Positions 2,907 to 59,561 are shown, counted from the first letter of the stretch. The stretch is DNA of 61,254 nt from Patescibacteria group bacterium UBA6263 (GCA_002441085.1 DJVF01000011.1:4514-65767); one strand, 5' to 3'. Numbers and translations are program-made. Notes: generated from the sequence alone by a model not told the origin.

Positions 2907-3037
2907 AATAATTTTTTTTTGTTATATATCTTAATTTATATATATTTTTGGTATAAAGTCAATTATAAAGTTTGTAGATTCTAATTAATCAAAAAATCAC
3001 AACTTTTTGTTGTGATATCTTATGGAATTAAGTAAGT

Positions 3038-3121
3038 TACCCAGAGGGGGACTTGAACCCCCACGACCTTACGGTCACCAGATTTTGAGTCTAGCATGTC
3101 TGCCAATTCCATCATCTGGGC
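3038..3121 (-). tRNA. tRNA-Leu(CAA), class II, no encoded CCA
   Basis: The reverse complement folds as a cloverleaf: acceptor GCCCAGA/TCTGGGT (G1-U72), anticodon stem CTAGA/TCTGG, loop CTCAAAA. It has a long variable arm GACC-GTAA-GGTC and a T-arm GGGGG-TTCAAGT-CCCCC. Confidence 0.9.
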
Positions 3122-3140
3122 ATATACTGTGTTAGTTTTT

Positions 3141-21848: not shown

Positions 21849-24800
21849 ATGACAATATCTCTTGAGCAGTGTCAAAATATGCTTGCTAATCAACTTGTGC
21901 AAGATTTTTCGCAACAACAAAATATATCTAAACTAACTACATCTGCTTGGTGAAAAAATAAAGCAGATTGTATTTCTGTAATGTGATGACTAGGTAAAAT
22001 ACAATCTTCGATTGCTCAAATACAACAGGATCATAAAAGTGGAACTTTGGTCCTAGAAGAAACTAATAATTCATATTTTGAAACTACAGAAACTGTATCT
22101 AAAAATAATATAGAAAGTGATATTTGATTGTTTGGGGTTTCTTTCAACCAGATTGGTAATTCTATTTTCATTTGAATATTATCTTTGATTTTTGTGTACT
22201 TGATATGGAATGTTGTAAGATATGGATTGAGATATATTTATTCGTTTGTGAATGAAAACAGATTTGTGTATTTAAAGGTTATTTTACCAAAATGAGATGA
22301 TAAATTGTGACGTGAACAATCCAAAGAACTAGCTAAAGATATGAAAGAAAAAATATGACGTATGTCACAAGTTTATATGCATTTCCATAAAGTGAAGGAA
22401 TTAAGTACACGAGACACTATGATGTATACTCTTTTTTCTAAACAAAAGATAATTATGATGTATCATTATGAATGATGAACTTTAAATTTTATAGTATGAA
22501 CATTCCCAGAATATATGAAAGTAGTAGAATGAGCTATATCTTCACAATTTTCAGATTGTTCAATAGAGAGTGTAAAAAAACCAAATTTTTTCTCCAAAAA
22601 ATATAGCGATATAACAGTGCTAGAGCCAAAAAAAGATCCAATATATACAATAAAGATGTTTAAGTTGATGCCAGATGATCCTATAAATAATATTATAGAT
22701 GCTATAGCTAAGGTACAAACTACCGATACAGTTACTATTTTGATGCCGATAAAACCTGTATGATCAAAGTTTAATGAGAAAATGAAAAAATTTGCTGATA
22801 GACTTTATAAAAATCTTGATATTAAAGATACTCCTTGGTGGCATTATATTTTTATGCCATGGAAAATATTTGGATTTCTCTTTTTTTGACCATCAAAAAA
22901 ACTTTTAGCTTGATCGTCTGGTGATGCTGATAATGTTACAATGGTACGTATGGTAAAATCAAAAGAAGATGCTATGAACGCTATATGAGAAGAAGCATGA
23001 TTGCCAGTTTTTAGATCGTGATTGATGTTGATTACATCATCTGATTCTAAATTAAACGTAGATTCTAATATAGATAATCTTGTCAGTGCCTATAATATTT
23101 ATTGAGATGAATATTCCAATCAACTTGATGAAGCACTTACCAAACATGATATGTTTTGATTTATTTTTAGGCCACTTTGGGCTATAGCTGCAAGATTTTA
23201 TTTGACATGATTTTTTTTCAAATATGCTTATTTTTCTGTAAATCAGTTAACATCCTTATTCCATTTCCCTGATTGACTATACAATCGTTCTACTATAATT
23301 GAATGGATGCAATATAAAGTATTGGCGGCTCCTTCTGATTTGCCAAATATGTCTTTAGATCTTGAAAATGGTTATGTGATGTGATGATTGTTGGCAGAAA
23401 AATATAAGGATTGAAAACTTTCAAAAATTTTGGAATCTGATTATAGAGATCATCGAGCTATTGGTAATTGAAATTCAAAAGAAGAAGTATTGAAGCCTAT
23501 AGAAGAATATAAATGAGAATCTATTGAGTGAAAAGAAATAATAGAAAAAAACTGAAAAAAGTTTGTTAAAACATATAAGGAGATATCTTATACTTGATAT
23601 AAACTTTATAAAAATTGAGTTTTGTTGTGAGTAAATATATATAGAAACTCTCTAACTCCAGTATATATGAAAAGAGATGATAGGACAAGGCATTATTATT
23701 GTATATGAAAATCGGGTACATGAAAATCTGTATTTTTACAAACTTTAGCTAGGCAAGATATTTGGAATGGTGATTGAATATGTTTGATTGATCCTCATGG
23801 AGATTTGGCCGAAGATGTATTGGCATATATACCAAAAGAAAGAGCTAAAGATGTCGTATATTTTGATGCTTGAGATGAAGATAGGCCTATGTGATTGAAC
23901 TTATATGAGATAAATAACCTTGATGAAGCAGACAGGGTAGTAAATGATGCTACAGAAATATTTATCAAAATGTTTGGTCCTGAAATATTTGGTCCTAGAA
24001 TACAAGAATATTTTAAATATGGAAGTCTGACTTTGTTGGAAGATTTTGATGATAGACCAACTCTTTTGGATGTTGTAAGATTGTTTACGGATGAATGATA
24101 TAGAGAATATAAAGTCAAAAAAGTGACAAATCCTGTAGTCAGAAATTGGCGAGAAAAAACATTTAATGCTATGTGAGATAGAGAAAAACAAGAAATTATA
24201 CCATATTTTTCTGCTAAATTTGTATCTTTTAATACCAATAGACTTATTAGAAATATTATATGACAGACAAAATCAGCATTTAAGTTTGATGATGTGATGG
24301 ATAATAGAAAGATATTGATTATAAATCTCAGTAAGGGTAAAATATGAGAAATGAATGCTCAATTGCTGGGTATGATTATTGTGTCCAAGATATATACTGC
24401 TGCTATGTGAAGAGCTAGAATGGATGAAAAGGATAGAAAAGATTTTTATTTGTACGTGGATGAATTCCAAAATTTTGTATCTTGAACTTTTGCAGATATC
24501 CTTTCTGAGGCTAGAAAGTATAGATTGTGTCTGATAATGGCTCATCAATATATTGCTCAATTGGATCCTCCTAAGTGACTTGGAGATTCTGGATGATGAA
24601 AAAATGATGTTAAAGCTGCTGTCTTTGGTAACGTCTGAACTATGCAATCATTTAAAGTCTGAGCGCCAGATGCTGAATTTCTTGAAAAAGAATATGCTCC
24701 TGTACTTTGATGACAGGATATTGTTGGTATAGCTAATTACAAAGCTTATATAAAACTAAATATAAACAATTCTACAACTCGTGTTTTTAGTATGAATATG

Positions 24801-24980
24801 ATATATTCAAAAGACTATCAAAATAAAAAGATAGTACCAATTCTAAAAGAATATTCTGCAAAAAGATATTGAAGAAAAAGAGAATTTGTCGATGCTGAAA
24901 TGCAGGCAAGACTCTGACTTGGGGTAGATGAAACTAATCTCCCAGCTAATGATAATTCGAAGGATGAATTACAGATATAA
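21849..24980 (+). CDS. VirD4/TraD-like (type IV secretion coupling-protein-type) P-loop ATPase, 1043 aa
   Basis: One TM in the N-terminal region. Walker A is HYYCIGKSGTGKS, followed by [12 protein letters not shown]. Walker B is [11 protein letters not shown], followed by [20 protein letters not shown]. Confidence 0.8.
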
Positions 24981-25714: not shown

Positions 25715-26639
25715 ATAATCAAAGGTATGTGTGTGATAAGAAATCTGGAATTGGCTGTTTGAGAAATGACTCTAATGATATAGTTTTGGTCCAGTATTTT
25801 CATATACCTTTTATATAAAATGTACTTGTTGGTAGATATTCGTTGATTCAAAGTGTTGGTTGTATATCTACACAAAAATTGATTGAGGTTTGAAATTCTT
25901 TGGTGTTTCATAATATAATGAAGCTTTTTAACAATGATGAATGTTTTTTATATTCATTAGATAGGTTGCTTAATCATATTGGTATATTGGATCAATAAAC
26001 TTCAAATGAATTTTTAAAATCGTTGATTATATTTGGATTGTTTGTAGATCAAGTTTTTATAAATATTCAATCTTGTAATATATCTGATCATGACATTATG
26101 ATTATTCATATTGTTATTTCTTTGTTTGGAGAAGGTGTTTTTAATTTTATGTTTGGTAATTTATCTGCCATATTTTTATAAGTTGGGCTGTTGATCAATT
26201 TATCATAGTTTGTGCCTAAATTTATTTGTCTAAATAAAGGTAATATAAATGATTGTCATGTATTTAATGATATAGGATTGTTGCATCAAGTATCAGTCCG
26301 TGTATTTAGAGAAAAAGAATTAGAATTTCAAGATATGCTTGTATAAAGATTACAATTTTTACATAAAAAATTTGATTGCACAATATCGTCTCATGTATTT
26401 ATAGTATTTTCAAATCAGACTCAGTTGTTTTGTATCTGGGTTAAAGATATTTCCAATCAGGCTTTGGATAAATAATATGATTTGTAATATCCATGTATTA
26501 TATTGTTGTATTCCATCAATTCTCTAATATAATTGGTGCTTAATATTCAAATCAATGAAGATGCTATCAATATAAAAAGAACCAAAATACTTATATTTCA
26601 TTTATTATTAATCTTTTTTGACTCATGATTGTTAGTCAT
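25713..26639 (-). CDS. PilX-like minor pilin / pilus-associated protein (308 aa)
   Basis: It has the hydrophobic N-terminus GNISILVLFILIASSLIGILS but no G|FTLIE motif. Its start overlaps the upstream pilin stop. It is the last gene of the pil operon. Confidence 0.5.
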
Positions 26640-27273
26640 TGTTATCTATTGAATTAAAAAATTGTTGTATAGGGATATTTATTCTATTGTATCGATGCTG
26701 ATTGTATGTGATAGAATAGGCTTTGGATATAATAAAAAATCATGGCTTGTGTATGCATCCTATATAGTTTGTACAGGTTGATATTCAATTAATATAATTT
26801 TGAGGGGAATCATATGGTACTATTTTGAATATAACTTGAGATAAATATGTAGTTTTGGGATTGCTTATATCGACTATTTGTCAATTATTATTTACCTGTA
26901 AATGACATTGATATCATCATGTTAAAAAATCTATACTTATTCATGGATCTAAGCAAGTTCATGTACTATATATTTCAATATTTCAATCTTGTCAGCTTAG
27001 ATATAGTATCTTGGTAAGTCATTTTTTGATTGATAGAAATCATGTTCATAGCTTGGTATGATATTTGTCATAATCTATGCTATTTCTGTCAGAAAAATTT
27101 TGTATTATTTGAGATATAAATAAGATTTCTTGTGTAACTTTTTTTTCTTGTTCTATCCTAAATGATATTTGAGAAATAAAAGTATATGTTTTCATCAAAA
27201 CAATAGATAAAATTCATATTATCACAAGTACTATAATTGTTTCGACTAGTGTAAATCATTTGGCTTTGTTCAT
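26632..27273 (-). CDS. type IV pilin-like protein (prepilin N-terminal methylation motif)
   Basis: MNKAKGFTLVETIIVLVIIGILS. The cleavage-site Gly is a TGA codon. Confidence 0.8.
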
Positions 27274-27277
27274 TTGG

Positions 27278-27880
27278 CTAATATTCTCCTATAAAACTTT
27301 CTAAAACAATTTCTCATGTCTTGGATCATTTGCTAAACATTACATGAGATTCTAATTTAATTATTTTATCAGTTGGTAATATTTGTCACAATTCTATTAT
27401 TCAAGTAAGTACTATATATCTCGAAAATATAGTTGTTTGTCAATCGGTATTGTTGTGATTGTACCAAAAAATTGTATTTCAATTTATATTTCATGAATGG
27501 TAGTATAGTCTATTATCTTGGAAATTATTGGAGTTTGTCCATTTAAATTTGGGATATTTGTCTGGTTCTAGTCATATTTGTAAATATTTTCATAAAGTCC
27601 CAGAAGCGAATGTTCAATCGCAAAATTGAGTGAGAGGAGTTATATTTTGAGGATCTGTAAATATACAGTTTCGATTTAGTTCTTTGGCAAGGTTAGCATC
27701 TCTAGCATTGAATACTAGTTCAATTCATTCTTTGGCTAAAAAGGTTGCTATATTTTTGGTTTTTGTATCATCTAATTTTTGTAAATTATTTGTAATTAAA
27801 TAAAAAACTGCCATTATTCATATTGAAAAAACAGCTATTATTATAATTATTTCTATTAAGGTGAATCACTTATTTTTCAT
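27278..27880 (-). CDS. type IV pilin-like protein
   Basis: MKNKGFTLIEIIIIIAVFSIGIMAV. The cleavage-site Gly is a TGA codon. Confidence 0.8.
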
Positions 27881-27988: not shown

Positions 27989-28540
27989 TTAATTTGAACA
28001 AATTTCCTGTATGATTTTACAATTTTGTGAAAGTATATACATACAATATTTTGTGTTTTGATTTATAGTGATTTGAAAATCTAATTTTGTTCATGTATTA
28101 TTGTTTTGGTCTTTTATAGTGCATCATAATTTGTATGGAGATATTTCTATTGTAGCCTTATTTTGATTTGAAGCTCAGTCGACCTTTATATTGTTGGTTT
28201 GAATAATATCTATTTCTTTTTTGCCAGTATAAATATAATTATCTCAAATATATGAATAAAAAATTGAATTATTTCATGAAAATATTTCTAAATTCAATGT
28301 ATTGAAACGATTTTGTTTTATATAGTTGGATTCTAATGAGCTGCTATAAAATCAATTAAATGCTGATGTAAATTCTTCTTTAGCTGTTTTGTATTTTAGT
28401 TTAAATATATTTTCTGATCCAAAATAAATTGTCATTCACAAAATTAAGCTTATTACAACCAATATTATAATTATTTCTATCAGAGTAAATCATGATTTGA
28501 TGTTATATTTGCCTATTTTTTTATGCTTTATTATACTCAT
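27989..28540 (-). CDS. type IV pilin-like protein
   Basis: MSIIKHKKIGKYNIKSGFTLIEIIIILVVISLIL. Its start overlaps the pilC stop by 10 nt. Confidence 0.8.
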
Positions 28541-29655
28541 ACTCATTCCATTATTTGTAATATAAGTCAAAACACTCCCAGAGCTATAATAACTATAACA
28601 ACTCATATAAAAACCAATATAACCGGTTCTATAACTTTTGCAAGACGATTGATATTGTTGTCTAATTCTTCTTCATACATTCTAAGAACATTGTCTAATG
28701 AACTTTGTAGATTAGCAGTCTCTTCTCATACTTTTATAAGAGCTGAAACATTACTTGGTATCAAATATGTTTGATCTTTAATAGTTTCGTATATTGTTTC
28801 TCATTTTTGAAGTCATATTAGAGTATTTTCTATCATATTTTGATATATTGGTATATTTAATATGTCTTTGAGTATTTGAAAAGTTTCTATATAATTCATT
28901 CATGATTCCAACATAATCCTGGTATATCTACATCGTTTTATTAAATAGTAATATTTTGTTAATTTACCAAATAATGGGATTTTTAATAAAGTTGAAAATC
29001 GCTTTTTTTTGCCAGTATCTGTAGATGAAAAAATTAATAAAATAGTTATAGTCGATACTATGATTCGCATTATTCATTTTCGATTTTCTTTTGTTCAATC
29101 TGCTATATTTTTTAATATAACGGTAACCCTTGGTAATTTAACATTTTCAAAGCTATTTGCTATTTCAAAAATTCATGGCAAAACAAATGCAAATAAAGAT
29201 ATCATAGCTACTATGGTTATTACTATTAGTATAGTAGGATAAGTCAAAGCCATCATATATTTATTTTTGATTTCATTCATATAAGTGTATTCATCTGCAA
29301 GGGACTTTAGTATTTGTACTATATTTCATGATCTTTCTCAAGCTTTGACTATACTATAATCTTTCTCATCAAAATAATCTGGTAGTCTATTGAAAGCATA
29401 TGATAGTTCCTTTCATTGTATCAGATAATGATTTACATTTTTGGATATTTCTTTTACAGAATAGTTATCAGAACTGCTTTCTATTATTTTCATAGCTTCA
29501 GATAATGCTACTCATCAATTTATTAAATATGATAATTGTCTAAAAAATATAACTTTTTCTTTGCTTCAAAAAGTTCATTTATCCATTTCACGTAAAAATG
29601 AAAGTATAGCTTTGTCTATCAGATTTGTATTGTATTTTTTATTTGATTTTTCCAT
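28531..29655 (-). CDS. pilC: type IV pilus platform protein PilC (GspF family)
   Basis: FFRQLSYLINGGVALSEAM, VKAGERSGNIVQILKSLADEY, LIKVGEETANLQSSLDNVLRMYEEE, VIEPVILVFIGVVIVIIALGVFGL. Confidence 0.9.
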
Positions 29656-30432: not shown

Positions 30433-30967
30433 TGGACTTTATTTTAGCATTTAAAACAAACTCAAAATATCTTTCTCACGTTTTATCATAAGTTTTTATT
30501 TCCATATTTTCTATAAAATCTAAATCTTCAAATCTATCTATAAGTGATTTAAAACTCCCAGATGGAGAATTGTAATATAGTAATCTTAAATTTGATACTT
30601 TTCATTTTAAACTAATTTCATTTAAATTTACTTTGAAATCTGATAAAATAATAGATTCACTTCATGAATTTATTGACTTTAGATCTTCTAATATTGATAT
30701 TATTTTGGGTATGTGTTCTGACCATGGCATAGATTGTGATGAATTTTCCAGTTCTCTTATGAGATATAATTTGTTATATCAAGTAGTCTGTTTATATTTT
30801 TCTAGTTCTATATTTTGTTGCTTTAGTATTTCTTGATTGTTTTTGATCCTTTGCTTGGTAATTTGATTTCATAGTTGGAAATATACATAAAAAAATACAG
30901 TTATAATAAATATAGCCGCAAGAAATTTGAATGTACTTTCTCGTCTAGATACAGATTGTGATTCCAT
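30422..30967 (-). CDS. PilN-like pilus assembly protein
   Basis: Short N-terminus, TM (FKFLAAIFIITVFFYVYF), then a coiled coil and ISLKGKVSNLRLLYY..FKSLIDRFEDLDFIENMEI. It overlaps the next gene by 11 nt. Confidence 0.55.
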
Positions 30968-31240: not shown

Positions 31241-34200
31241 ATGAACCAGAAAGATTTGATAAATAGTATGCTCGAATATCGAAAAAAATATGATATCTTT
31301 AAAAAATCTGTTGATCAAAGATCAGATAAATTACAATCAACAACATATGATTGACCTCCTTTTGCGTCTTGAACTCCACATTTTGGACATGGATTGACTT
31401 CGTCAATGAAAGACACTATTTTTAGATACAAAAGTATGAAGTGATATAGGGTCAATAGAGATTGGTGATGGGATTGTCATGGATTGCCTGTAGAAAAATA
31501 TGTAGAGAAAAAATTGTGAATTGATGGTAAAAGAGATATAGAGGAAAAAATAGGAGTAGAAAAATTTATTGAAGAATGTAGGGCTTCTGTAGGTAATATT
31601 AGTTGAGAATGGAGAACTTTTGTTGATCAGATATGAAGACGAGCCGACATGGATAATGCATATTTTACAATGGATCTGGATTTTATGGAATCGGTAATAC
31701 GAGTTTTTCAGAATATGTATAATCAAAATCTGGTTTATAAATGATTTAAAGTGCAACGATGTTGTCCTAGTTGTGCAACTGCGCTTTCCAATTCTGAAGT
31801 AAATGATTGATACAAAGATAAACAAGATCAGGCTATAACTATAAAATTTAAAATAAATGGTGGCATTAAAAATCGAGAAGGTTCGGAAACGACTTCTGAT
31901 TTATGTGTCCATGTTGTTACATGTGCCATCAAACAAGATAATAAATTTCTTCAATTTTATCACTCAAAGAGCCTAAGATATGAATTTCCTGGTGGGAAAA
32001 TAGAAAAATGATTTACTATCATGGATACCGTAAAAAAAGAAATTAAAGAAGAACTTGGTGTTGAGGTAAACGAAATTATTGAACTTTGAAGTTTCAAAGA
32101 AATCATAAAATGACATCTTTTGAATTTACATTACGTAGATGTGATTATAGAAGGCGAACCGAAAAATATGGAACCAGAAAAACATCCACAAATGATTTGG
32201 GCTGAAGTTATTAAATCTGAAAATAATCTGTGATTTGCAGTGAAGATTGAAAATACTATCATTGATGATGGTTTTGAAATTATGAATCAGTTTCCTGATC
32301 TGTATTACTATCATAAAAATTTTGCTAAAGAAATTACTAAATTGCAACAAAAAGAACCAGCTAATATTAATATTCTTGCATGGACTACTACTCCACGAAC
32401 TTTACCTAGTAATATGTTTTTGGCTGTAGGTAGCGATATTCGTTATTACATGGTTTTTGATAAAAGTAGTAAAGAATATTATGTAATAGCTGAAAGTCTA
32501 ATTAAACAATATTATAAGGATAGTAATGAATATATTCTGATTAATGTTTTGAAATGATCTGATTTGGAATGAATAAAATATGAACCGCTTTTCCCATACA
32601 TAAATCAAAGTAATATTGATCAAAAATATAAAGATCAGTTTTTTCAGATTATTAGCTGAGAATTTGTAAGTACAGAAGATGGTACTTGAATAGTACATAT
32701 TGCGCCAGGATTTGGAATGGAGGATTTTGATGCAGTTACAAAAATTTTACCTAGGGAAGATTCTAAAAATTGGCTTTTTATGCCTGTAAATGACTTTGGA
32801 GAATTTACAGATCAAGTAAATGATTATCAGGGGAAATCTGTTTTTGATGTAAATAAAGAGGTAATTACAAGACTTAAAGAAGAAAAAAAACTTATATGAC
32901 AGAGATCTTATTCCCATTCTTATCCTCATTGTTGGAGATGTGAAACTCCATTGATATCCAAAGCAATTACTTCTTGGTTTATCAAAGAACAAGAACTTAC
33001 AAAAATAACAGTTCCAAATGCTGAAAATATTTGATTTGTACCTGAAACTGTAAAAAATAGATTTCGCGATACTCTCAATTCTGCTCCAGATTGGAATATT
33101 TCTAGAAATAGATATCGATGATCTCCGTTACCTGTCCGAGAAAATGTCAATAATGAAGATGATAAAATGATTGTATGAACATTGGATGAAATATGGAAAA
33201 ATTCTATAAATTGATCTAAAAACCTTACAAAGCTCGTTTTTGTAAGGCATTGAAAATCTGAATATAACGTTCCAGTGCCACATTTAGTCGATAATTATGG
33301 CAAAGCTCATCTTGTAGATGAATGAAAAGAGCAAGCAAAAAAACTTGTTGAAAATTTAAGATTTTTGTCTGAAGATATAGATAATGTTGTATTTGTTATA
33401 TCACCATTGCCTAGAGCTTTTGAAACAATATTGCCATACCTTGAAAAAATATTGTGAAAATCTGAGATGAAAATTGTAGTTAAAGAATATGAAAAGGTTT
33501 TGCAAAATTATCAAAAACTTTATGATGAATGAAAACTATATAATTATATAATTGAATCTTGAGATAAAAATAGATTTGAGATATGAAAAAATATATATAT
33601 TGATTTTAGAGCAATCGAAATGTTTATACCTGAATATCAGGACAAGGAACATGATTGTAAAATTTTGAAACGAGAGGATGTAAAGCAATGAAAATGATGA
33701 GAATCTATGTTTGATATGTACAAAAGATGTGATTGATATTTACTTGATATTACATCAAAATTTAAAACCAAAACTGTTGTTACTGTCTCTCATGCAGAAG
33801 CAACGCTGATGATGTTTAAAAAAATTAGAGATTTTGATTACAATAAAAAGAAAAAAAACTTTATGCTGCGCAATGGAGAGATTAAAATTTATTATCGAGA
33901 TAATGATCATAATAAAGAAGTAGATTTACATAAACCTTATGTAGATAGTTATCGATTTAATATAGATTGAAATGAATATCGTAGGATACCTGAAGTAATG
34001 GATTGTTGGTTTGAATCTTGATCTATGCCATTTGGACAAGCATGATATATTTGAGTCGAAAGCAAAAAGTCCTTAGTTTATCCTGCAGAATTTATTATTG
34101 AGTGATTGGATCAGACTAGAGGGTGGTTTAGAGCAATGCATGTTGTAGGTAATGCAATTATGAAAAAAAATTCTTTTGATAATGTTATTATCAATGGTAT

Positions 34201-35365
34201 GATACTTGCTGAAGATGGTCGTAAAATGTCTAAAAGTTTAAATAATTATCCTGATCCCAAGTACGTTTTTGAAAGATATTGATCTGATGCTTATAGGTTG
34301 TACTTATTATCTTCTCCTGCTGTTAGAGCTGAGCCAATGAGATTTGCAGAGAAGTGAGTAGATCAGATTTATAAGGATTTTACAAGTGCTATTATCAATT
34401 CTTATAATTTTTTTGAGACTTATGCTAATGTAGATAATTTCAAATCTGATTGAACTAATGTTTATTTTGTAGGACATACTGAATCAGATTGAAAAGATGT
34501 TGACTCAGAAACTTCATCAAAATGAATAGAATCTATGAAAGATAAAAAATTGATTGAAGATGTAATTAGAACTAATCCTGATATTATTTATGTTTCTCCC
34601 ACTAAAAGAACAATCCAAACTGCTGAAAAATTTGCAGAAATATTAAAAGAATATACATGAAAAATTGTAGAAATAAAGATTGAAGAATCTTTGGCTTCAG
34701 AGGGAGATAGTATAGAATTTTATAATGATGTCTTGAATATAGATAAATCAAAAACAATTTTGATAGTATCTCATCTTTCAAGCTTCAAAAAATTATGGGC
34801 TAATATTTTTGATGATTCAAAAGATGCTAATATCAATCATCTTGAATTTATCAAATTGCCAAGCTACAAGATTGAAAATGAATTAGACAAGTGGATATTA
34901 GCTGAATTGAATAAGGTCTGAATAGAAATGGAATGATTTATGGATGTTTATGTTCTTGATGGTGCAGCTAAATCTGTTCTTGGATTTGTAGATAAAATGA
35001 ATAATCGATATATAAGGAGATCTAGAAGAAGGTTTTGGTCTTCGGGTATGAATTTGGATAAAATATCTGCTTATAATACATTACTAGAAGTAATGGAAAC
35101 TTATATGAAAATATGTTCTTGTTTTGCGCCATTTATATCAGAATATATATATCTTAAGTTGCAAAATTTTAAAAATATTGATTTTGTAGATTGAGAATCT
35201 GTCCATTTAAAAACATTACCTATTTTTAATAAATTATATGTAGATAAAAGTCTTTTAGATGAGATAGCTACAGTTAGGAGAATAATATCTTTAGGGCTGT
35301 TTATAAGATCTAAAAATGGTATAAAAGTTAAACAGCCTTTGGGTGTAATGCATATAAAATTTTAA
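31241..35365 (+). CDS. ileS: isoleucyl-tRNA synthetase (type 2-like), 1374 aa, with three inserted domains and no C-terminal domain
   Basis: The HIGH motif is PHFGHGL and the KMSKS motif is RKMSKSL. Other IleRS motifs are GWDCHGLP, AWTTTP(CGA)[21 protein letters not shown](CGA)GSPLP and DQTRGWF. The gene ends 10 codons after IKVKQPL. Confidence 0.9.
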
Positions 35366-35463: not shown

Positions 35464-35784
35464 ATGCCAACAAAAAAACCAAGTCCCAAAAAAAAGGTTA
35501 CTACAAAGAAAACAAATTTTGATAAAAAACTACAGGAGGTAAAGAAAACTGTTGAAAGTGAAGCAAAGTTTGTAGAAAAAGAATCCAAAGAGATTGCTAC
35601 TTGAATTAGTAAACGATGGAAAATTTCTTCTTGAGAAGAGAAACTGTATTCTATTTTTTGAATTATTTTATTGGTTATAGGTTTGTATATTTTATTAAAT
35701 AATTGATGGTGGTTGTTTGTAAGTGCTATTTTTATTATACTTTGAATTCTTTTTGTTTCTGGATACTTTCATAAAAGTAAATAA
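35464..35784 (+). CDS. small membrane protein (106 aa), Lys-rich N-terminus
   Basis: MPTKKPSPKKKVTTKK.., then two hydrophobic segments and a TAA stop, followed by a terminator. Confidence 0.5.
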
Positions 35785-35800
35785 TAATGTAATTCTTATC

Positions 35801-35836
35801 AAAATAATCAGGTGTCTTTGGACTCCTGATTTTTTG
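35801..35836 (+). terminator. intrinsic terminator
   Basis: Stem AATCAGGTGTC / GACTCCTGATT (one mismatch) followed by a T-run. Confidence 0.6.
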
Positions 35837-35925
35837 TTGTAAAAAACTATAAAAACTGTAGATTATTTATGTTTAATAAATATAATTTATGTTTGATTTA
35901 TTGTTTTAATATCTTAAATTATCAT

Positions 35926-37641
35926 ATGTCTCAGCTTACTGAAGATATATTGTCCAAAACTGACATTGTAGATATAGTTTCCAAATATATTCCTCTCAAA
36001 AGATCTGGAAGTAATTTTGCTGGTTTGAGTCCTTTTAAACAAGAGAAAACTCCATCTTTTATGGTTTCCCCTCGTAAACAAATATTTAAGGATTTTAGTA
36101 CTGGTATTTGATGAAATGCTATTACTTTTGTTATGGAAATAGAAAAAATTGATTTTTGGGATGCTATAAAAATATTAGCAAAAGAATCTAATGTTGATCT
36201 CAGAGAATATGAACTTAACCCAAAAAAAATGGAAGAATTTTCTGATGAGAGAGAAAAAATAAAGAGAATACATAAGTTGGCACAAAAATATTTTGTACAA
36301 GAGTTGGCAAAAAATGAAGATGCTATAGAATATTTGAAAGTAAAAAGGTGATTAGATGATGATACTATAGATGAATTTGGAGTATGATTCTCTCCTGATA
36401 ATAATTATTGATTGATTCAGTTTTTGAAATCAAAATGATTTACTGATGAAGATATATTACAATCGTCTTTGGCAAAAAAATGACAAAATACTGATTCTTA
36501 TGGGTTTTTTAAAAATAGAATTATGTTTCCTATCTATGATACTATGTCTAATGTAGTATGATTTGGGGCTAGAGTCTTGAATCCTAATGAGAATCCAAAG
36601 TATATAAATAGTGCAGACCATAAAGCATATGATAAATCGAAAATATTGTATTGACTCAATGTAGCTAAGCAAAATATAAAATTACACAATAAACTGATTG
36701 TAGTAGAGTGATATATGGACGTAATAGCGTTGGCTAGATTTGGCTTTAAAATATGAGTAGCTACTTGTTGAACTTCTTTGACAGAAGAACATATGAAAAT
36801 ATTAAAGAGATATACTGAAAATATATATTTTCTTTTTGATAATGATGAAGCGTGAATTTCTGCAACATTTAGAGCGTTAAAGATTGCTTATAATTATAAT
36901 ATTTTCCCCAAAATAATCAGATTGACTTGAGATATAAAAGATATAGATCAATTAGCTGGTCAAGAACATTGAAAAGAAACTTTTGAAAATATTATGAAAA
37001 AGTCTATTGATTGATTTTTGGTTTATTTTAATATGTTTAAATCGCAAATAGATATAAGCTCTCCTATAGAAAAGCAAAAAATAATGACTAAAATGTTTGA
37101 ATTGATTATGGCTGTAGATAATTATGCTATACAAGATCACTATCTCCATTTACTGGCTGAAAATTTATCTTTTTCCTATGAAATATTAAATGCTCAATTC
37201 AAAAAATTTAAAAATACAGATTGATCTTTTGAATTAAAACAGAAAATAAATAGAAATATTCAACCTACCTATAAAATTGATAGAGAAATTATATTTGCAG
37301 CATTATTTTATCAGAAATTTGTTTATAAATATATTCAAGATGATGAAAAATGGAGATGATTTTTGGATTTATCTAAACAGATTTGATCCCTTTATGATGG
37401 AACTTTTATAAATAAAGTATTTTCTTGAAATCTAGATCAAAATGAGCTTAAAGAAATGGATGAGATGACTATACGACGAGAGTCCCAACTTGATAATTTT
37501 ACTGAAGAAAATGATAAATATTTTTTTATAAAAAAAACTGTTTGATCTGTATTGCTTTGATATTTACAAATTTTACTAAAAAACAGTGATATATCTAACG
37601 ATATCAAAAATAATTTATTAAAGCTCAAAAAAATGTTTTAA
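35926..37641 (+). CDS. dnaG: DNA primase DnaG (zinc-ribbon ligands all substituted)
   Basis: [38 protein letters not shown], the Toprim segment LIVVEGYMDVIAL, and YFLFDNDEAG. Confidence 0.85.
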
Positions 37642-37645
37642 TTAT

Positions 37646-37978
37646 TTAGAAAGGTAGATCTTCATCTTGTTTGATTTGATTGTTTTGTCAATTACTTGTT
37701 TCTGTATTGTTGGAAGCTCATTCTATTCTTCGTGCAGAAATACGATTGTATCGTTTTGAATTGTATTCATTTGCTTTGAAGTTTAGAGAGACTTTGATTA
37801 TATCTCAGATTTTATAAGTTTTGATTAATTCTGTTTTTTCTCATAATAAATCTATTGCTATTGAGCTTTTGAATTCTTTATCAGTGTTTTCTTCTAATAT
37901 AAAAGTGATTTTGGGTAAATTGTTTTGTCAAACTGTTTCTTGTTCAGATATGAACATAATTTTTCATTCAAATGTCAT
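37646..37978 (-). CDS. DUF3127-like OB-fold protein with an SSB-type acidic tail
   Basis: MTFEGKIMFISEQETV..KITFILEE..GDIIKVSLNFKANEYNSK(W)YNRISA(W)RIE, where both W residues are CGA codons. The C-terminus is QDEDLPF. Confidence 0.65.
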
Positions 37979-40724: not shown

Positions 40725-41435
40725 ATGTTTTTGGCTGTAGATAAACCTACTTGAATATCTAGTTTTGGAGTGATAAAAGTATTGAAAAAATTTTATATTT
40801 GACAAAAAATATGACATAGTTGAACTTTGGATCCTATGGCTACATGACTTATGATTCTAGCTATATGAAAAGACACAAAAAATTTGACTCAATTGATATG
40901 ATTGGATAAAAGTTATATTACTACGATTGATTTTTCTAAAATGTCAGATACTTGGGATATGGAATATTGGGAAGAAATGATAAATTATAAATGTGAAATT
41001 ATAAATTGAAAAAATTGAATTTGGATTGATGAAAAATTTGTAAAATCTCCAGATTTGAATCAAATAAAAGAAAAACTTCAATCTTTAGTCCCTGAATTTA
41101 ACTTGCCAGTACCAGCTTTTAGTGCCAAAAAAAAAGAGTGAAAAAGATCTTATGCTTTGGCTAGAAAAGGCAAACAGGAACTTAGTTATAAGGACATGAA
41201 AATTTATTGATTTGAAATATTGGAATATGATTTTCCTCTTTTAAAAATTAATTTAGATGTCGGTTCTGGGACATATATACGTTCTATTGCTTATTGGCTT
41301 GGAAAACAATTTTGAACTGGATGAATATTGACAAATCTTAGAAGAACAAGTATTGGAGAGTGGGAAATGGAAAATTTTAAAATGCAGGATGTTGAAAATA
41401 GTCAAATTAGATTTTGTGAAATAGATATTAAATAA
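40725..41435 (+). CDS. truB: tRNA pseudouridine(55) synthase
   Basis: [68 protein letters not shown]. Confidence 0.9.
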
Positions 41436-42530: not shown

Positions 42531-43003
42531 ATAGTGTTTGTTAAAAACTTATTTAGTTTTTGACTAAATTGATTTTTGATTATTTCTTTTGTTTTGAATT
42601 GTATAGTTCATATAGGAGTTTGAGCACATAAATGTGTCATATCTTGGAATGTTGATCTATCTCCACCACTTCACATTGTACAGTAAAATATTATTTTGGA
42701 TGGCAAATTATTTTTGTTTTGACTTATATATGTTCTAATTGCTGTTGCCATAGTAAAATCCCGTACAGGAGTACCTATAATCAATATTTGATAATCTGAT
42801 GGATTGTGTTGAATATTATTTATTTTTGTTAATTTTTTGAGTGATGCATCTCTACCAGCTAATATATATCAAAAAATTCAAGATCTACTTTTGGTATCTA
42901 TAATTTCTTCTATATCGCATTTGGTAACTTTTTCTATATATTGAGCAACTTTACGCGTTATTCATGTCCTGGAATAATATACTAATAGGATTTTTTTATA
43001 CAT
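42527..43003 (-). CDS. flavodoxin-like protein
   Basis: MYKKILLVYYSRTGITRKVAQYI, ILIIGTPV(CGG=W)DF. About 158 aa. Confidence 0.7.
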
Positions 43004-43676: not shown

Positions 43677-44861
43677 TTGGAGCCAATACCATCATTTCTT
43701 AGACCTGAGACATTGGATGATTTTGTCTGACAAAAACATTTGGTAGGTGATTGAAAAGCTATCAAAATTTTTTTGGAAAATTGAAATGTTCCTTCAATGA
43801 TTTTTCGATGACCTCCATGAGTTGGTAAAACTACCTTGGCACTCATAATATCTAAAAAGATTCATGCTGATTTTTATCAGATGTCATGAGTAACTAGCAA
43901 AAAAGAAGATTTGAAAAAAATTATAGAACAAGCAAAAATAAACTTACAATATGCAAAACAGACTATAGTTTTTTTGGATGAAATACATCGTTGGAATAAA
44001 GCTCAACAAGATACTTTGCTCCCTTATGTAGAAAATGGCAGTATCATACTGATATGAGCAACAACAGAAAATCCAAGTTTTACAATCAATAATGCTTTGT
44101 TGAGCAGATCTAGAGTTTTTGTTTTTGAAAAATTGACTCATGAAGAAATACTTTGATTTCTTAAAAATAACTTAAAAAAAATTCAGAATAAATATACTGA
44201 TATAAAAATATCTGATGAAAATCTTAAACTTATAAGTAAACTTGGTAATTGAGATCTGAGAAATTCATTAAATATATTGGAATCGGCGATGTTGATTAGA
44301 AATAAATGAGATATTAGTGATGATGATATTTTGAAGGCAGGACAAAAGGCTATTTATTTTGATAGAGATGGAGAAGAACATTATAATATAATATCTGCTG
44401 TACATAAGTGTTTGCGTGATAGTGATGGTAATGCTGCTTGTTATCGGATTCAAAGGATGCTTATGTGATGAGAAGATCCGCTTTATATTGTTAGAAGGTT
44501 ATTGCGTTTTGCTTCAGAAGATATATGACCAGCAGATAATAATGCATTGTTATTAGCAAATCAGGTTTATGATGCAGTCGCAAAGATATGAATGCCAGAA
44601 TGCGATGTTTTTATTTTTCAGTTAGCTATGTATCTTGCAAAAGCAAAAAAAGATAATACTGCATATAAGGTTGCTATAGCAACTAAAGCGGATGTCTTGA
44701 AATATTGAAATTTACCAGTACCTATGAATATTAGAAACGCTCCTACAAAGTTGATGAAAGAAAACGGATATGGAAAATGATATAAATATGTACATGATGA
44801 TGCTTCTGCTAAAGATCAACAGCATTTACCTAATGAGCTCAAGTCAAGAAAATATTATTAA
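43677..44861 (+). CDS. rarA: replication-associated recombination protein A (MgsA/RarA AAA+ ATPase)
   Basis: [20 protein letters not shown](CGA=W)[41 protein letters not shown](CGG=W)IQRML. The start is assigned to TTG 43677 because there is no in-frame ATG. Confidence 0.8.
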
Positions 44862-50666: not shown

Positions 50667-53630
50667 TTATTTTTGGCTTCGAACAACTTTTTCTTCTCAA
50701 TTGATTTCTTTAAATTCTTTGGCTTTTACTTTGATTTTATCTCATATATTGTAATATTTTTTCCATTCGACTCAAGCTGGAGCAACGATGAAATTTTTGT
50801 GTAGCAATCATTCAACTCATTTGACAGTTACAAACATTCAGTAATTATAACTTAATTTGATGTATCCGTCGTATTCTTGTCAAATTTTGATGTTTTTGAT
50901 GGTAAATGTTTCATTGCCTGCCTGTCCGTTAGATAGGTTTCATTGTTTTAATGTTTTAGTGTTAGAGGGCTTAGGGGCTAAGGGGTTTGTTGTTCAGGTA
51001 GTTCCTGTATTTGTAGTCTTGCTTGCTTCTGTAGATGTTGGTTTAACTTCTTCTTTTGGCATAGCAGCTTGTATTTTACTTATATTTGGACAAAATTTTA
51101 GAAGCTCATTTTGAGCTGGATCAAGTCATGCATTTTTGATAATTTCTTCCAATTGTTTGGAGCAGTCTGTTTTGTTTCATATCCAAATCACCAATGGTCA
51201 ATTTTTCTCTATTTTAATTGTTTGATGCTCGTATATATCCAAATGAGTTTGTATAGATCAGATTTTTTGTCATTTTTTATATTTTATATTCGCTTGATCA
51301 TCTAATCATTTTGGTTTTGTATACCATATTGCTTTGTGGGAATTGTTGTCTGTATCAAATATAATTGCGTCTGGCTCTACTCAATCTATATTAAATTCTC
51401 TGAAGAGATAATCATGATCCAATACAAATTGATCTTCTAGATTTTTGACTTCTTTATCATTTAGTCATAGTCATTCAAGTTTAGCCTTTTCTGCTATTTT
51501 TTCTTGGATAGAAAATGTCTTTGCATTCCAAGCGTTCATCAATCTTTCTAATTGATCTTTTGGGGTTGCGTATCTTTGCCTTGATTGCTTACGTATCTTA
51601 TCGATAAGCTCCAATGATCAATCAGGTGTAGATATAGGTAGTGTTTTCATATTGAATGGGTCTGATGATATTCAGTCTACCATTAGCCTAGTGTAAGCTG
51701 TGAATTTTGGCAGTGATATAAGATCGTTTATGGATACCATTTCTTTGAATTGTGCAGAAATATCTACAGCATCATCACGTCATAGAGTAAAAGATATTAT
51801 ACTACCTACGTTTCCAAAGATAGCATCTTTGATTTCTGGTATCAACTGTGATGTATATTGATTTGCTACTATTAGTGATAATTTATATTTTCTAGCTTCT
51901 GACAATATAGTGACAAATGATTCTGTAGCAAAATTTTGAAACTCATCTATATAAAGATAAAAATCTCTTCTTAAATGTGCTGGTATATCTGCTCTAGACA
52001 TTGCATCTATTTGAAACTTTGTGACTAGTAATGATCAAATCATATTCGCATTATCTTCTCATATTCTTCATTTACTGAGATTGACAAGAATAATTTTTCA
52101 TTCATCCATAGCTTTTCTTAGGCTTAATTTGGTCCTAGGTTGACCGAATATATTTCTCACCAATTTGGACGATAAAAATTGTCAGACTTTGTTGGTAATA
52201 GGTCATACTGCTTCTTCTCTTTGTTTGTCATTTCGTTTGTTAAATTCTGTTTGTCGAAATTTTAATACAACTCAATCTTTGATATTGCTGATGACTTCTT
52301 CCCTAAAATTTTTATCTGTTAATATTCTTAATATATGCATAAGTGTTGCATTGGGATATTCTACAAGAGACAATACAACATTTCTAAGTATATATTCTAA
52401 TCTTGGTCATCGAGAATTACCGAAGAGTCTTTTGAAGGTTGATACTACTCCAGAAGCTACTAGATTTTTTCATTCTTCTGTATCTGACTGAAATAGATTA
52501 AATCATAATGGAAAGTCTGAATCTGCGACATCAAAAAGTATTACATCATTTATTCTATTTGTGGGTATGTGCTCTAGTATAATATCTACAAGCTCTCCGT
52601 GTGGATCTAATAATGCTAATCAGTTTCATGTCATCATGTCACTTTTGAGCATATTGGCTATAAATGTTGATTTACCAGTTCATGTTTTACCTACTATATA
52701 CATATGTCTAAATTTGTCATCTTTTTTGATTCCAAATCTGATTTTTTCTCCCCTATAATCAGTATCTCAAAGTACAGTCAAATCTTTTTCATTTGTATTG
52801 TCTAGTATCGGAATGTTCGTAGGGTATGGTAACTTTCTGTATAAGGTATATTCAAGTCATTTTATAAAATTTTCTTTTGTAGGAAGATGAAAAAAATTGA
52901 TAGCTTGATCAAAAGCTAATCGTTTGTATTTTTGAGTTTTTTTTATTTTTATTTTTCAATCTGAAACAAATGGAGAAAATACTGATATTATATTTTTTTC
53001 TGTGCTTTCTTTGATATAAATATCTTTTGTCCTAAGTATATAAGATATCGATGTCAAAATATCTTCTTTGGGTAAATTATCATCTTTTTTTTCTTCTGCT
53101 TTTTTGGTTGCTCACCATGCTCGTTTGATAAATGATCATATCTGTTGTAATGTATTTTTGCTTTTTTTGAATTTAAAGTCAAAATAAATGTTCAATTTGG
53201 AATCTTTGTCTATATTGTTGTATAAAGACAATATGTCTTTGATAGGATCCATATATTTTCAATCTTTGGTGAATGTAGATTGTGAATTTAAAACTCAATC
53301 TTCAGAAAAACGTATAAAATTTCTATTATTAGGCAATACAAATGCTTGTTCTTCTTGCAAATCAGAAGTAGGATAATTGGAATAGAATGTGTTTTGAAAA
53401 TAATTTTTGAATGATTTGGGAATTACTACAAAAAATTTGATACTGTGAGAATTTCAGCTCATTAAAAATGTTATGGTATTTGATTTTAAACTGATTAGAT
53501 TGCTAATGACAGCATTCCAGTGATTTATGCCAAATTCATTATCTTTGAATGGCTTAATCTGTAGAAATACTTTGTCTGATTTTAATTCTTTTTTTGTGGT
53601 AGTTGAATGAATTTTTGTTTGTTTTGTCAT
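50667..53630 (-). CDS. VirD4/TraD-like P-loop ATPase with a C-terminal S1 domain, 987 aa
   Basis: Walker A is HMYIVGKTGTGKS, followed by LLDPHGELVDI. Walker B is FYLYIDEFQNF, followed by SEARKYKLSLIVANQYTSQL. After a T/P/N linker comes the S1-like QEYDGYIKLSYNYGMFVTVKGVEGLLHKNF..YNIGDKIKVKAKEF. Confidence 0.8.
50908..50945. repeat. copy of the GC-rich element inside a CDS, flanked by the 9-nt direct repeat GTTTCATTG
   Basis: The reverse complement of 50917-50940 is AAACCTATCTAACGGACAGGCAGG, with the same AAACCT..AGGCAGG frame as 1412-1434 and 46160-46182. The direct repeats are at 50908-50916 and 50937-50945. Confidence 0.5.
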
Positions 53631-54687: not shown

Positions 54688-55707
54688 ATGGATTGAACAT
54701 TTATGTATAACTTATACCAATCTAAATTGCGAATAGATATTAATCAAAAAATATATAAAAAGCCATCTTTTTTTATTGATATTTTTTGAAAGAAATATTT
54801 TGGATTGATAAAAACAAAAAAAATTGGACCTTTAAAGTTTCAACGATATCAGATAATGTGAATAGAGTTGCCTGATGACAAGGAATATGTAAAAAGTGAA
54901 ATACAAAAATTGAAGACAAAATATTCAAAAAATAAGTCTAATATACTTTTTCAATTGTGATTTATAAATGAGATTATACGTTTTGAAAATGTCGGTCGTA
55001 GGTCTGATGATTTTAATAATGATATTGCTTGTATAAGATTAAATATACGTGATTTTATATGTTCAGAATTTGATTTAAAATTATCTTTTAGGGAAAATAT
55101 GCCTCAGAGTAATATTATTTATCATATATGAAACAAGACAGATCAAGAAATTTTGGATCAAATGAATTCTGGTTGTAAGAATCGTGTAAAAAGAGCTATG
55201 AAAGAATGAATATATTTTGGTATAGCTAGTCCAGATCGGTATGATCTGTTTTATGAAAAGTGGCTTGAAACTGTATGAAATAAATGAGTCAATATAATTC
55301 CCAAAGAAACTTATTATCGTTTGTTGAGGTATCTTACTCAAAATAATCGTTGAAATCTTTTTATATCTCAAATTAATTGAGAAATTGTTTCTGGTAGTAT
55401 AGGACTTTATGATGAACATCGTATAATATATTTATATGGTTTTGCTAGTAGAAAATTTGGTAATATAGGATGACATCATTATCTAAAATTCAAACTTTTT
55501 GGTCGAGCAAGAGAAAATGGATTTACGTATTGTGATATGTTGTGAGGAGCTCCTACATGATTTCCAGAACATCCATTGGCAAGTGTAAGTGCATTCAAAG
55601 AATCTCTTGGTGGTATGAAAATAGAACAATATGGTAGTTATGATATAATATTAAACTGATTTTTATATAAATTATTTAGATTTTACACTAACTTAAGAAA
55701 TAAATAA
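54688..55707 (+). CDS. FemAB-family peptidoglycan aminoacyl/peptidyl transferase
   Basis: KNRVKRAMKEGIYF, IVSGSIGLYDEHRIIYLYGFAS, HHYLKFKLFG(CGA=W)ARENGFTYCDMLG, SAFKESLGG. Confidence 0.7.
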
Positions 55708-58808: not shown

Positions 58809-59561
58809 TTATTCTTTTAAGTTGGAATAAGCTTGTTCTATATCTTCATCTTGCTCCAATCCATTTATTAGATTTAATAGATTCTGTTTTTCTATATCTG
58901 GTATATTTACTTCGTTATTGGGAATATATTGGATATCTGCATTGATTATATTGTAGCCCATATCTTCTATTTGTTTTTTGGTTTGAGCAAAATCTTGTTT
59001 GGCTGTATATGCAATTGCTATTGATTGATCTATAGAAAAATCATTTGCTGAAGTTTCTAGTATGTCATTTTCAAATTCTAGCTCATTTAAAGGAGCTACG
59101 TTTTCAATTTCTTTTCATTTAATGTTTTGTATCTGTTTTTTTCAATTGATTATAATTATTCACTTTTCTGTAAATTGTCGAGAAACAGATCCTGGTTGTC
59201 ATAAATTTCATCAATATTTATTCATCAGTAATTTGATGTTTTGAGATGTCCTATTGGTGTTTTGTGTGAGTGCTTTGATGATTATGGCTATTCATCATGG
59301 TCAATATCATTCGTATAGAATTTCTTGTAAGTCTTCTCATTCTGATTGTCATGATCATTTGAGTATAGCTCTATCTATAATATCTCTAGGAACTCAATGA
59401 TATCTTGCTTTTTGTAATGCTAGATCTAATGAAGGATTCATTTTGGGATCTGCTCATTTTTTGGCTGCAATTTGGATGGTTTTGGAAATGATACTATATA
59501 TTTTGGATTTTGCATCATCTCAAGATGCTTTTCTAGCTGCTATACTGTGTCGACGTCACAT
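58809..59561 (-). CDS. yebC: YebC/PmpR-family transcriptional regulator
   Basis: [72 protein letters not shown](CGA=W)QF. Confidence 0.9.

Follow-up and report, generated by a model that had tools for sequence, protein, structure and literature searches.

The gene for isoleucyl-tRNA synthetase (IleRS), ileS, of Patescibacteria group bacterium UBA6263 carries CGA codons at positions that are occupied by tryptophan (Trp) in other IleRS. This raises the question of which amino acid CGA and CGG specify here, i.e., arginine (Arg) or Trp. The gene lies in a stretch of 61,254 nucleotides (GCA_002441085.1, DJVF01000011.1:4514-65767), which was analysed as a whole and is called the window below. An original prediction, made from the sequence of the window alone, had claimed that both codons changed from Arg to Trp. 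The observation that CGA and CGG occupy Trp positions was confirmed and is far beyond chance. Its interpretation as CGA/CGG reading Trp is supported by outgroup columns, by codon exchange among relatives, by Pfam scores and by a tRNA(CCG) of the Trp type on contigs from Absconditabacterales. With a probability of roughly 0.93, the window would follow the variant code of Absconditabacterales, i.e., UGA as glycine (Gly) and CGA and CGG as Trp, through dedicated Trp-type tRNAs with the anticodons CCG and UCG. That CGA and CGG are reassigned in this order is already known, and the window adds only confirmation.

The window has a GC content of approximately 27%, and in-frame TGA is found throughout. 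With TAA and TAG as the only stops and TGA as a sense codon, 54 long genes were predicted, which cover 91% of the window and hold 18,624 codons. The counts were 79 for CGA, 7 for CGG, 125 for TGG, 53 for CGT, 3 for CGC, 351 for AGA, 65 for AGG and 809 for TGA. Per 10,000 codons, CGA was used 42 times, CGG 3.8 times and TGG 67 times, and CGA and CGG make up 41% of the Trp codons of the window if they are read as Trp. TGA is the dominant Gly codon, i.e., 69% of Gly codons, compared with 371 GGN codons.

Relatives of the window were searched with its IleRS, and 77 related loci were found among GTDB species representatives. The best 40 loci all belong to candidate division SR1, i.e., the order Absconditabacterales. 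They have in-frame TGA and a common architecture of approximately 1370 amino acids, and they are 43-68% identical to the window IleRS over the best segment. The first five loci outside SR1, from other candidate-phyla bacteria, reached only 33-34% identity over a comparable span. By this protein comparison, the window is assigned to Absconditabacterales. Because the best match is only 68% identical, the source species is absent from the GTDB species representatives. One TGA-free open reading frame (ORF) of the window matched a 3.3-kb JGI contig, which gave no additional sequence.

The other 37 loci, i.e., standard-code bacteria and archaea without in-frame TGA, were used as the outgroup. The 41 SR1 proteins, including that of the window, and the 37 outgroup proteins were aligned with CGA and CGG masked as X. 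In the window IleRS, 804 residues were alignable, with 21 Trp-conserved and 21 Arg-conserved columns. The gene and its ten alignable CGA codons are as follows.

31241-35365, plus strand: ileS, IleRS of 1374 amino acids with TGA as Gly; solved-structure matches with E = 1e-175, Pfam domains tRNA-synt_1 and Anticodon_1.
31280-31282, plus strand: CGA, amino acid 14; outgroup Trp in 32/32, SR1 TGG 26, CGA 6, CGG 2; not named in the original prediction.
31640-31642, plus strand: CGA, amino acid 134; outgroup Trp in 34/35, SR1 CGA 17, TGG 16, CGG 1; also not named there.
31700-31702, plus strand: CGA, amino acid 154, ESVI[CGA]VF; outgroup Trp in 26/35 and Tyr, His, Phe or Leu in the rest, SR1 TGG 16, CGA 8; Trp in yeast IleRS.
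31757-31759, plus strand: CGA, amino acid 173, VQ[CGA]CCPSC; outgroup Pro, Leu or Met, SR1 CGA 15, TGG 14, Gly codons 7, Arg codons 0.
32396-32398, plus strand: CGA, amino acid 386, WTTTP[CGA]TLPSN; outgroup Trp in 34/35, SR1 TGG 31, CGA 4.
33116-33118, plus strand: CGA, amino acid 626, NRY[CGA]GSPLP; outgroup Trp in 34/35, SR1 CGA 34, TGG 4.
33137-33139, plus strand: CGA, amino acid 633, PLPV[CGA]E; outgroup Trp in 35/35, SR1 TGG 34, CGA 2, CGG 2; a third site that had been missed.
33896-33898, plus strand: CGA, amino acid 886, beside an SR1-specific insert; SR1 CGA 26, TGG 8, CGG 1, Phe or Tyr codons 4, outgroup hydrophobic (Leu, Val, Ile or Phe).
33953-33955, plus strand: CGA, amino acid 905; SR1 CGA 24, TGG 15, CGG 1 and no other codon, outgroup variable.
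35006-35008, plus strand: CGA, amino acid 1256, NN[CGA]YIRRSRRR; outgroup Trp in 36/36, SR1 TGG 22, CGA 16, CGG 1.

The window ileS has 12 CGA, no CGG and 15 TGG codons. Seven of the 12 CGA (31280, 31640, 31700, 32396, 33116, 33137 and 35006) fall on columns where 26-36 of 32-37 outgroup IleRS have Trp, and the same Trp residues are present in the solved yeast IleRS. Counted over the ten alignable CGA, seven are on Trp-conserved columns and none on Arg-conserved columns (binomial P = 9e-10). At 31757, 33896 and 33953, nearly all SR1 orthologues have CGA, CGG or TGG, and there is no Arg codon; the two remaining CGA fall within variable SR1-specific inserts. At the 21 Trp-conserved columns, the window has TGG ten times and CGA seven times; TGG is still used for Trp, as had been claimed. 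At the 21 Arg-conserved columns, AGA is found 11 times, AGG six times and CGN not at all.

The original prediction had listed five near-universal Trp positions in ileS. Four of them hold, i.e., 31700, 32396, 33116 and 35006. At 31757, this type of IleRS has Pro, Leu or Met, and the proposed vhWCxxC motif was unconfirmed, yet the SR1 orthologues alternate between CGA and TGG there. All 11 codons that it listed within and outside ileS are in frame and in the quoted peptide context, at the positions given for them.

The SR1 IleRS of approximately 1370 amino acids also holds three insertions that are absent from solved IleRS structures and from the 37 outgroup sequences, which are 800-1040 amino acids long. 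The first (amino acids ~210-376) contains a NUDIX domain, the second (~666-893) a domain of the histidine-phosphatase type (His_Phos_1) that has the RHG motif, and the third (~1060-1198) a second histidine-phosphatase-like stretch. Because all full-length SR1 IleRS loci are of like length, the fusion is apparently order-wide.

Besides the window, 40 further SR1 genomes showed the codon-level signature. In the 41 SR1 IleRS genes, 204 of 317 alignable CGA and 15 of 22 alignable CGG were on conserved-Trp columns, and none of either codon was on a conserved-Arg column. AGA was on conserved-Arg columns in 567 of 975 cases, and Trp was not among its five commonest classes listed. TGA was on conserved-Gly columns 270 times. 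The outgroup residue profiles of CGA (Trp 0.60, Tyr 0.07) and TGG (Trp 0.77, Tyr 0.06) are alike.

The exchange of codons within SR1 IleRS columns gives the same picture. The column partners of CGA/CGG are CGA/CGG in 42%, TGG in 39%, AGA/AGG in 0.2% and CGT/CGC in 0% of cases, and those of AGA/AGG are CGA/CGG in 0.0%. CGT/CGC have AGA/AGG as partners in 40% of cases and are found with no CGA, CGG or TGG. Since CGT is at Arg positions and has no columns in common with CGA, CGG or TGG, the CGN box is cleanly split. Judged by these columns, CGU, CGC, AGA and AGG are still Arg codons. CGT on an outgroup-Tyr column was considered as an anomaly and rejected, because this column is an SR1-wide Tyr-to-Arg substitution (AGA 28, CGT 10, AGG 3), which fits CGT as Arg.

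The share of CGA/CGG among the Trp codons of IleRS varies from 8% to 75% across the 41 SR1 genomes. In some lineages, CGA exceeds UGG as a Trp codon, i.e., 60-75% of IleRS Trp codons. Of the Gly codons of IleRS, TGA makes up 2% to 82% across SR1 genomes. It was considered that Trp shifted from UGG to CGA/CGG to escape misreading by tRNA-Gly(UCA). This idea is unsupported, as the CGA/CGG share and the TGA share gave a Spearman rho of 0.00 over the 41 genes.

Outside ileS, the comparison was limited to 26 CGA/CGG sites of the window because gene order around ileS is weakly conserved in SR1, and the next gene is common to only 16 of the 40 SR1 loci. These 26 sites have an SR1 orthologue with at least 35% identity. 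TGG was found in at least one orthologue at 17 sites and only CGA/CGG at three, and an Arg codon was found at none. Pfam scores were also computed for ten window proteins, with the CGA/CGG sites set to either Trp or Arg. For IleRS, Trp raised the scores of tRNA-synt_1 by 14.3 bits and of Anticodon_1 by 4.9 bits. Gains of 1.6 to 2.6 bits were found for T2SSF, the tRNA (uracil-5-)-methyltransferase family (PF05958) and M29, and the Acetyltransf_6 score fell by 2.4 bits with Trp. The sites with structural, Pfam or orthologue data, and one CGT control, are as follows.

43806-43808, plus strand: CGA in RarA/MgsA before Walker A, MIF[CGA]GPPGVGKT; Trp in E. coli MgsA 3pvs, Tyr in 8g28; Pfam AAA +2.8 bits with Trp.
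44445-44447, plus strand: CGG in the C-terminal domain of RarA, CY[CGG]IQRML; Trp in 3pvs, Tyr in 8g28; MgsA_C +7.3 bits with Trp.
42761-42763, minus strand: CGG in a flavodoxin-like protein, GTPV[CGG]DF; both solved homologues (2mwm and 3klb) have Trp; Flavodoxin_4 +6.2 bits with Trp.
59178-59180, minus strand: CGA in YebC, GSVS[CGA]QF; Tyr in 1lfp, 1kon and 4f3q; Pfam domains +4.2 and +5.7 bits with Trp over Arg.
37730-37753, minus strand: two CGA in a DUF3127 protein, i.e., 37730-37732 (ISA[CGA]RIE) and 37751-37753; Pfam DUF3127 63.4 bits with Trp and 51.1 with Arg (+12.3).
55504-55506, plus strand: CGA in a FemAB-like protein, G[CGA]ARENG; Tyr in 6snr, Arg in 9wqw; Pfam FemAB 33.2 bits with Trp and 36.9 with Arg.
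28933-29082, minus strand: four CGA in PilC (T2SSF), at 28933, 28999, 29065 and 29080; in the SR1 loci L001, L018 and L026, each of the four sites is TGG, CGA or CGG, besides a single TGA and a single TAT, and there is no Arg codon.
35614-35616, plus strand: CGA in a small membrane protein immediately downstream of ileS; CGA 10, TGG 6, CGG 1 in 17 SR1 orthologues.
37474-37479, plus strand: adjacent CGA-CGA in a 609-amino-acid ORF (35812-37638); TGG or CGA at both in SR1 orthologues, TGG-TGG in L006.
261-1109, minus strand: three of four MurC CGA, at 261, 435 and 1107; TGG at all three in L015, the one SR1 orthologue available.
24150-24152, plus strand: CGA in a P-loop ATPase of 1043 amino acids; TGG 7, CGA 1 in SR1 homologues.
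41280-41282, plus strand: control CGT in TruB, GTYI[CGT]S; an Arg-to-Trp swap lowers TruB_C_2 from 23.4 to 21.4 bits, in line with CGT as Arg.

A CGG in the gene at 25716-26639 is likewise CGA or TGG in orthologues. In solved MurC structures, the four positions with CGA in MurC show Leu, Ile, Phe or a variable residue, and none of them is a conserved Arg. The proposals for single proteins fared unevenly. In DUF3127, Pfam favours Trp, and CGT behaves as Arg, as claimed, both in TruB and in the SR1 IleRS columns. Both RarA sites are Trp in E. coli MgsA and favoured as Trp by Pfam, whereas the second solved homologue has Tyr. The flavodoxin CGG is backed by both structures and by Flavodoxin_4, but not by two other Pfam families. 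The YebC codon had been taken as an invariant Trp; judging from the three homologues, the site is aromatic with no invariant Trp, and Pfam still prefers Trp to Arg. The FemAB site was unsupported.

Two further observations concern these genes. Some SR1 orthologues have Gly codons, i.e., TGA or GGN, at the CGA sites 30941-30943 and 29065-29067 and at the IleRS column of 31757, which fits one-base changes from TGG (Trp) to TGA (Gly) or back, as are possible under this code. The 1043-amino-acid P-loop ATPase (21849-24977, plus strand) has a paralogue of 987 amino acids (50670-53630, minus strand), which is approximately 30% identical. Both have the motifs GKTGTGKS/GKSGTGKS and DEFQNF, and they are near type IV pilus genes, i.e., PilC (T2SSF) at 28534-29655 and pilin-like genes at 26635-27880.

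Which tRNAs could read the two codons was also examined. In the window, no tRNA(UCG), tRNA(CCG) or tRNA-Trp was found with ARAGORN, and its sole tRNA gene is the following.

3036-3122, minus strand: tRNA-Leu(CAA).

The 40 SR1 IleRS loci held 36 tRNA genes and one transfer-messenger RNA (tmRNA), and none of them had the anticodon UCG, CCG or CCA. A metagenome collection was scanned for YCG-anticodon tRNAs that have U20 instead of A20. The matches listed were mostly mitochondrial tRNA-Arg(UCG) on contigs with nad, cox and cob. Two Trp-like candidates with A1:U72 (L122 and L129) were rejected as SR1 tRNAs because they are on organelle-type contigs.

A tRNA(CCG) was found directly upstream of ung, the gene for uracil-DNA glycosylase, in at least seven loci, i.e., L081, L099, L131, L199, L200, L201 and L204. 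The first three are low-GC contigs from the metagenome scan, and the other four are further copies of the same arrangement. In L081, L099 and L131, ung has TGA on conserved Gly, and the invariant Trp of L..WA.QGV is encoded by CGG, CGG and CGA, respectively. No BLAST matches were found between the ORFs of the ung contigs and the SR1 set, so these contigs were assigned to Absconditabacterales via ung, whose closest named homologues are from 'Candidatus Absconditabacterales bacterium'. The metagenome-assembled genome that holds L201 also holds the IleRS locus L031.

The sequence of this tRNA(CCG) is AAGGTCGTAGCTCATCGGTAGAGCAGTGGTCTCCGAAGCCATGTG(C/T)AGTAGGTTCAATTCCTACCGACCTTG. It has A1:U72, G73, A9, U20 (C20 in L201), the loop CU-CCG-AA and a 5-bp anticodon stem, and it lacks A20. 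G73 and A1:U72 are features of bacterial tryptophanyl-tRNA synthetase (TrpRS) recognition, and A20 is the main feature for arginyl-tRNA synthetase (ArgRS), according to the criteria of Shulgina and Eddy (eLife 2021, PMC8629427). By these features, the tRNA(CCG) found in the relatives' loci, as distinct from the window genome, appears to be of the Trp type. The search for tRNAs with Trp identity elements that had been recommended was thus successful for tRNA(CCG) in relatives, and tRNA(UCG) was not recovered from the loci examined or among the metagenome matches listed.

The tRNA(CCG) is placed close to tRNA-Trp(CCA), i.e., at a distance of 0.6-0.7 kb in L201 and L204. In L202 and L203, tRNA-Trp(CCA) is found within 2.3-3.4 kb upstream of ung. 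Both tRNAs have A1, G3, G4, U8, A9, U72, G73 and the anticodon-loop context in common. The L199-type tRNA(CCG) is 74% identical to tRNA-Trp(CCA) and 53-70% identical to 13 other SR1 tRNAs. The 74% identity and the nearness of tRNA-Trp(CCA) suggest, without proving it, a local duplication of tRNA-Trp. It is a tentative proposal that tRNA(CCG) arose from such a duplication of tRNA-Trp(CCA) and a single A36-to-G change; the alternative is an Arg tRNA with changed charging.

Two other loci are of interest for this tRNA. In L203 (7610-10001, GCA_035446765.1, the same genome as L026), an rve-family transposase gene and two small ORFs lie between tRNA-Trp(CCA) and ung. No tRNA(CCG) was detected in this interval, unlike L201 and L204, and the tRNA(CCG) of this genome may have been moved or lost. 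In L112 (2576-2649, minus strand, metagenome contig Ga0137410_10050995, GC 0.66), an anticodon-CCG tRNA with a body typical of tRNA-Trp was found. It has the acceptor stem AGGGGCG...CGCCCCT, A1:U72, G73, U20 and the loop CU-CCG-AA. This tRNA is unexpected because, at a GC of 0.66, Arg is normally often encoded by CGG; an atypical tRNA-Arg or a further CGG reassignment could explain it.

The proposed mechanism is as follows. Dedicated tRNAs with the anticodons CCG and UCG would bear the TrpRS recognition features G73 and A1:U72 and lack A20, so that Trp would be inserted at CGG and CGA. The window's own genome would presumably have the same two tRNAs. The tRNA(UCG) would read CGA, its U34 would probably be modified and hence not read CGU or CGC, and both tRNAs would be charged with Trp in vivo.

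Several points weigh against reading CGA and CGG as Trp. No SR1 tRNA(UCG) was found in the window, the 40 IleRS loci, six ung loci or the metagenome matches listed. Of the 86 reassigned codons, 79 are CGA, which tRNA(CCG) is unable to read by standard pairing. Approximately 50 of the 86 CGA/CGG of the window are in proteins or regions without a usable homologue. The FemAB score is 3.7 bits higher with Arg, and at the flavodoxin site, Flavodoxin_5 and Flavodoxin_3 slightly favour Arg (-3.1 and -2.5 bits with Trp). Finally, no proteomic proof of CGA/CGG as Trp was found in the literature.

The alternative that survives best, although improbable, is ambiguous decoding, in which CGA and CGG are partly Trp and partly Arg or another residue. 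The anticodon bases C35 and G36 are recognition elements of ArgRS. The tRNAs could thus be partly charged by ArgRS, or tRNA(UCG) could also read CGU and CGC. A low level of mischarging is compatible with the sequence data, and possible ambiguity was raised by the original authors (PMC8629427). However, codons that supply 41% of the window's Trp and stand at invariant positions of the IleRS catalytic core argue for accurate decoding, and so does the clean split of the CGN box.

That CGA and CGG are still Arg, and that the lineage swapped many conserved Trp for Arg, is the assumption of table 25. It appears in NCBI records, where 5/5 uracil-DNA glycosylases of Absconditabacterales have Arg at an invariant Trp, and the FemAB score agrees with it. 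However, it would need Arg at seven of 21 invariant Trp positions of one essential enzyme, where other SR1 species have TGG. No CGA of the 317 is on a conserved-Arg column, so the outcome that would have spoken for Arg, i.e., CGA/CGG mainly in Arg columns, was not seen, and the tRNA(CCG) has Trp-type features instead of A20. By the codon-exchange pattern, with almost no AGA/AGG and no CGT/CGC as partners, this reading is effectively refuted.

A different residue with an aromatic or hydrophobic side chain (Tyr, Phe or Leu), for which Tyr in homologues at the YebC, RarA (8g28) and FemX sites and Leu, Ile or Phe at the MurC sites could be cited, or mRNA editing of CGA to UGG, has a negligible chance, since the outgroup profile of CGA and its synonymous partner within SR1 are those of TGG and not of TAT or TTT, editing would take two changes per codon, and an anticodon-CCG tRNA makes it unnecessary.

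The reading as Trp agrees with what is known of the order. CGA and CGG as Trp were predicted with Codetta for the Absconditabacteria clade (PMC8629427). The original prediction had given this result for one lineage; the published prediction covers the whole clade. According to the source data of Figure 4 in that paper, CGA was called as Trp in 10/10 Absconditabacterales genomes. The call for CGG was Trp in four of them and Arg in one, and it was undecided in the other five. A tRNA(UCG) is reported in nine of these ten genomes; tRNA(UCG), tRNA(CCG) and tRNA(GCG) are in most of them, and tRNA(ACG) is in none. Papers from 2026 treat the reassignment as established (PMC13092985; bioRxiv 10.64898/2026.04.02.715157; bioRxiv 10.64898/2026.05.03.722492), and a 2026 preprint on translation-table choice still describes these prokaryotic sense-codon changes as computationally predicted.

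The published code (PMC8629427) has the same codons, amino acid and order as the window, and nothing substantive differs. The GC content is low in both, i.e., approximately 27% in the window and 0.29-0.38 in the published genomes, and CGA is much commoner than CGG in both. Codon usage in the window is at the top of the published values, i.e., 42 CGA per 10,000 codons compared with at most 37 in the published genomes, the latter counted in Pfam-aligned columns only. A tRNA(CCG) with G73 and without A20 is common to the relatives' loci and to the published genomes. Two features found here are absent from the passages of PMC8629427 used, i.e., the tRNA(CCG) 0.6-0.7 kb from tRNA-Trp(CCA) and upstream of ung, and the 8%-75% share in IleRS.

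Other bacteria offer a partial parallel. In Anaerococcus and Candidatus Onthovivens, as described in PMC8629427 and PMC13092985, a CGN Arg codon also became Trp at low GC, with a tRNA(CCG) without Arg features, as in the group of the window. There, however, only CGG is reassigned; CGA stays Arg through tRNA(ICG), and tRNA(UCG) is absent. Absconditabacterales differ in that CGA is the main reassigned codon (79 compared with 7 CGG in the window) and that tRNA(GCG) serves CGU and CGC. NCBI table 25 (SR1 and Gracilibacteria) has TGA as Gly, as in the window, but still assigns CGA and CGG to Arg, which is wrong for the window.

The claim that plain table 25 would mistranslate these positions held, i.e., 86 codons in 40 of the 54 predicted window genes. 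The uracil-DNA glycosylases of Absconditabacterales at NCBI (P0001, P0007, P0008, P0010 and P0110) are the five that carry Arg at the invariant Trp of L..WA.QGV, and 46 other uracil-DNA glycosylases among the matches listed have Trp there. Because these ung products have Arg at an invariant Trp, the public table-25 annotation is demonstrably mistranslated. The present data are modestly additive, i.e., the linkage of tRNA(CCG), tRNA-Trp(CCA) and ung, the range of CGA/CGG shares and the Arg at an invariant Trp in deposited proteins.

Gene catalogues of Absconditabacterales made with table 25 therefore have Arg where the cell most likely inserts Trp. Approximately 0.46% of the window residues are affected, often at invariant positions of enzyme cores, and such mistranslation distorts the results of homology searches, predicted structures and selection estimates. 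The window supplies well-resolved test peptides for proteomic proof, above all from IleRS. If the duplication of tRNA-Trp(CCA) is true, Trp would have captured CGG first through a second Trp tRNA, and CGA later through a UCG derivative.

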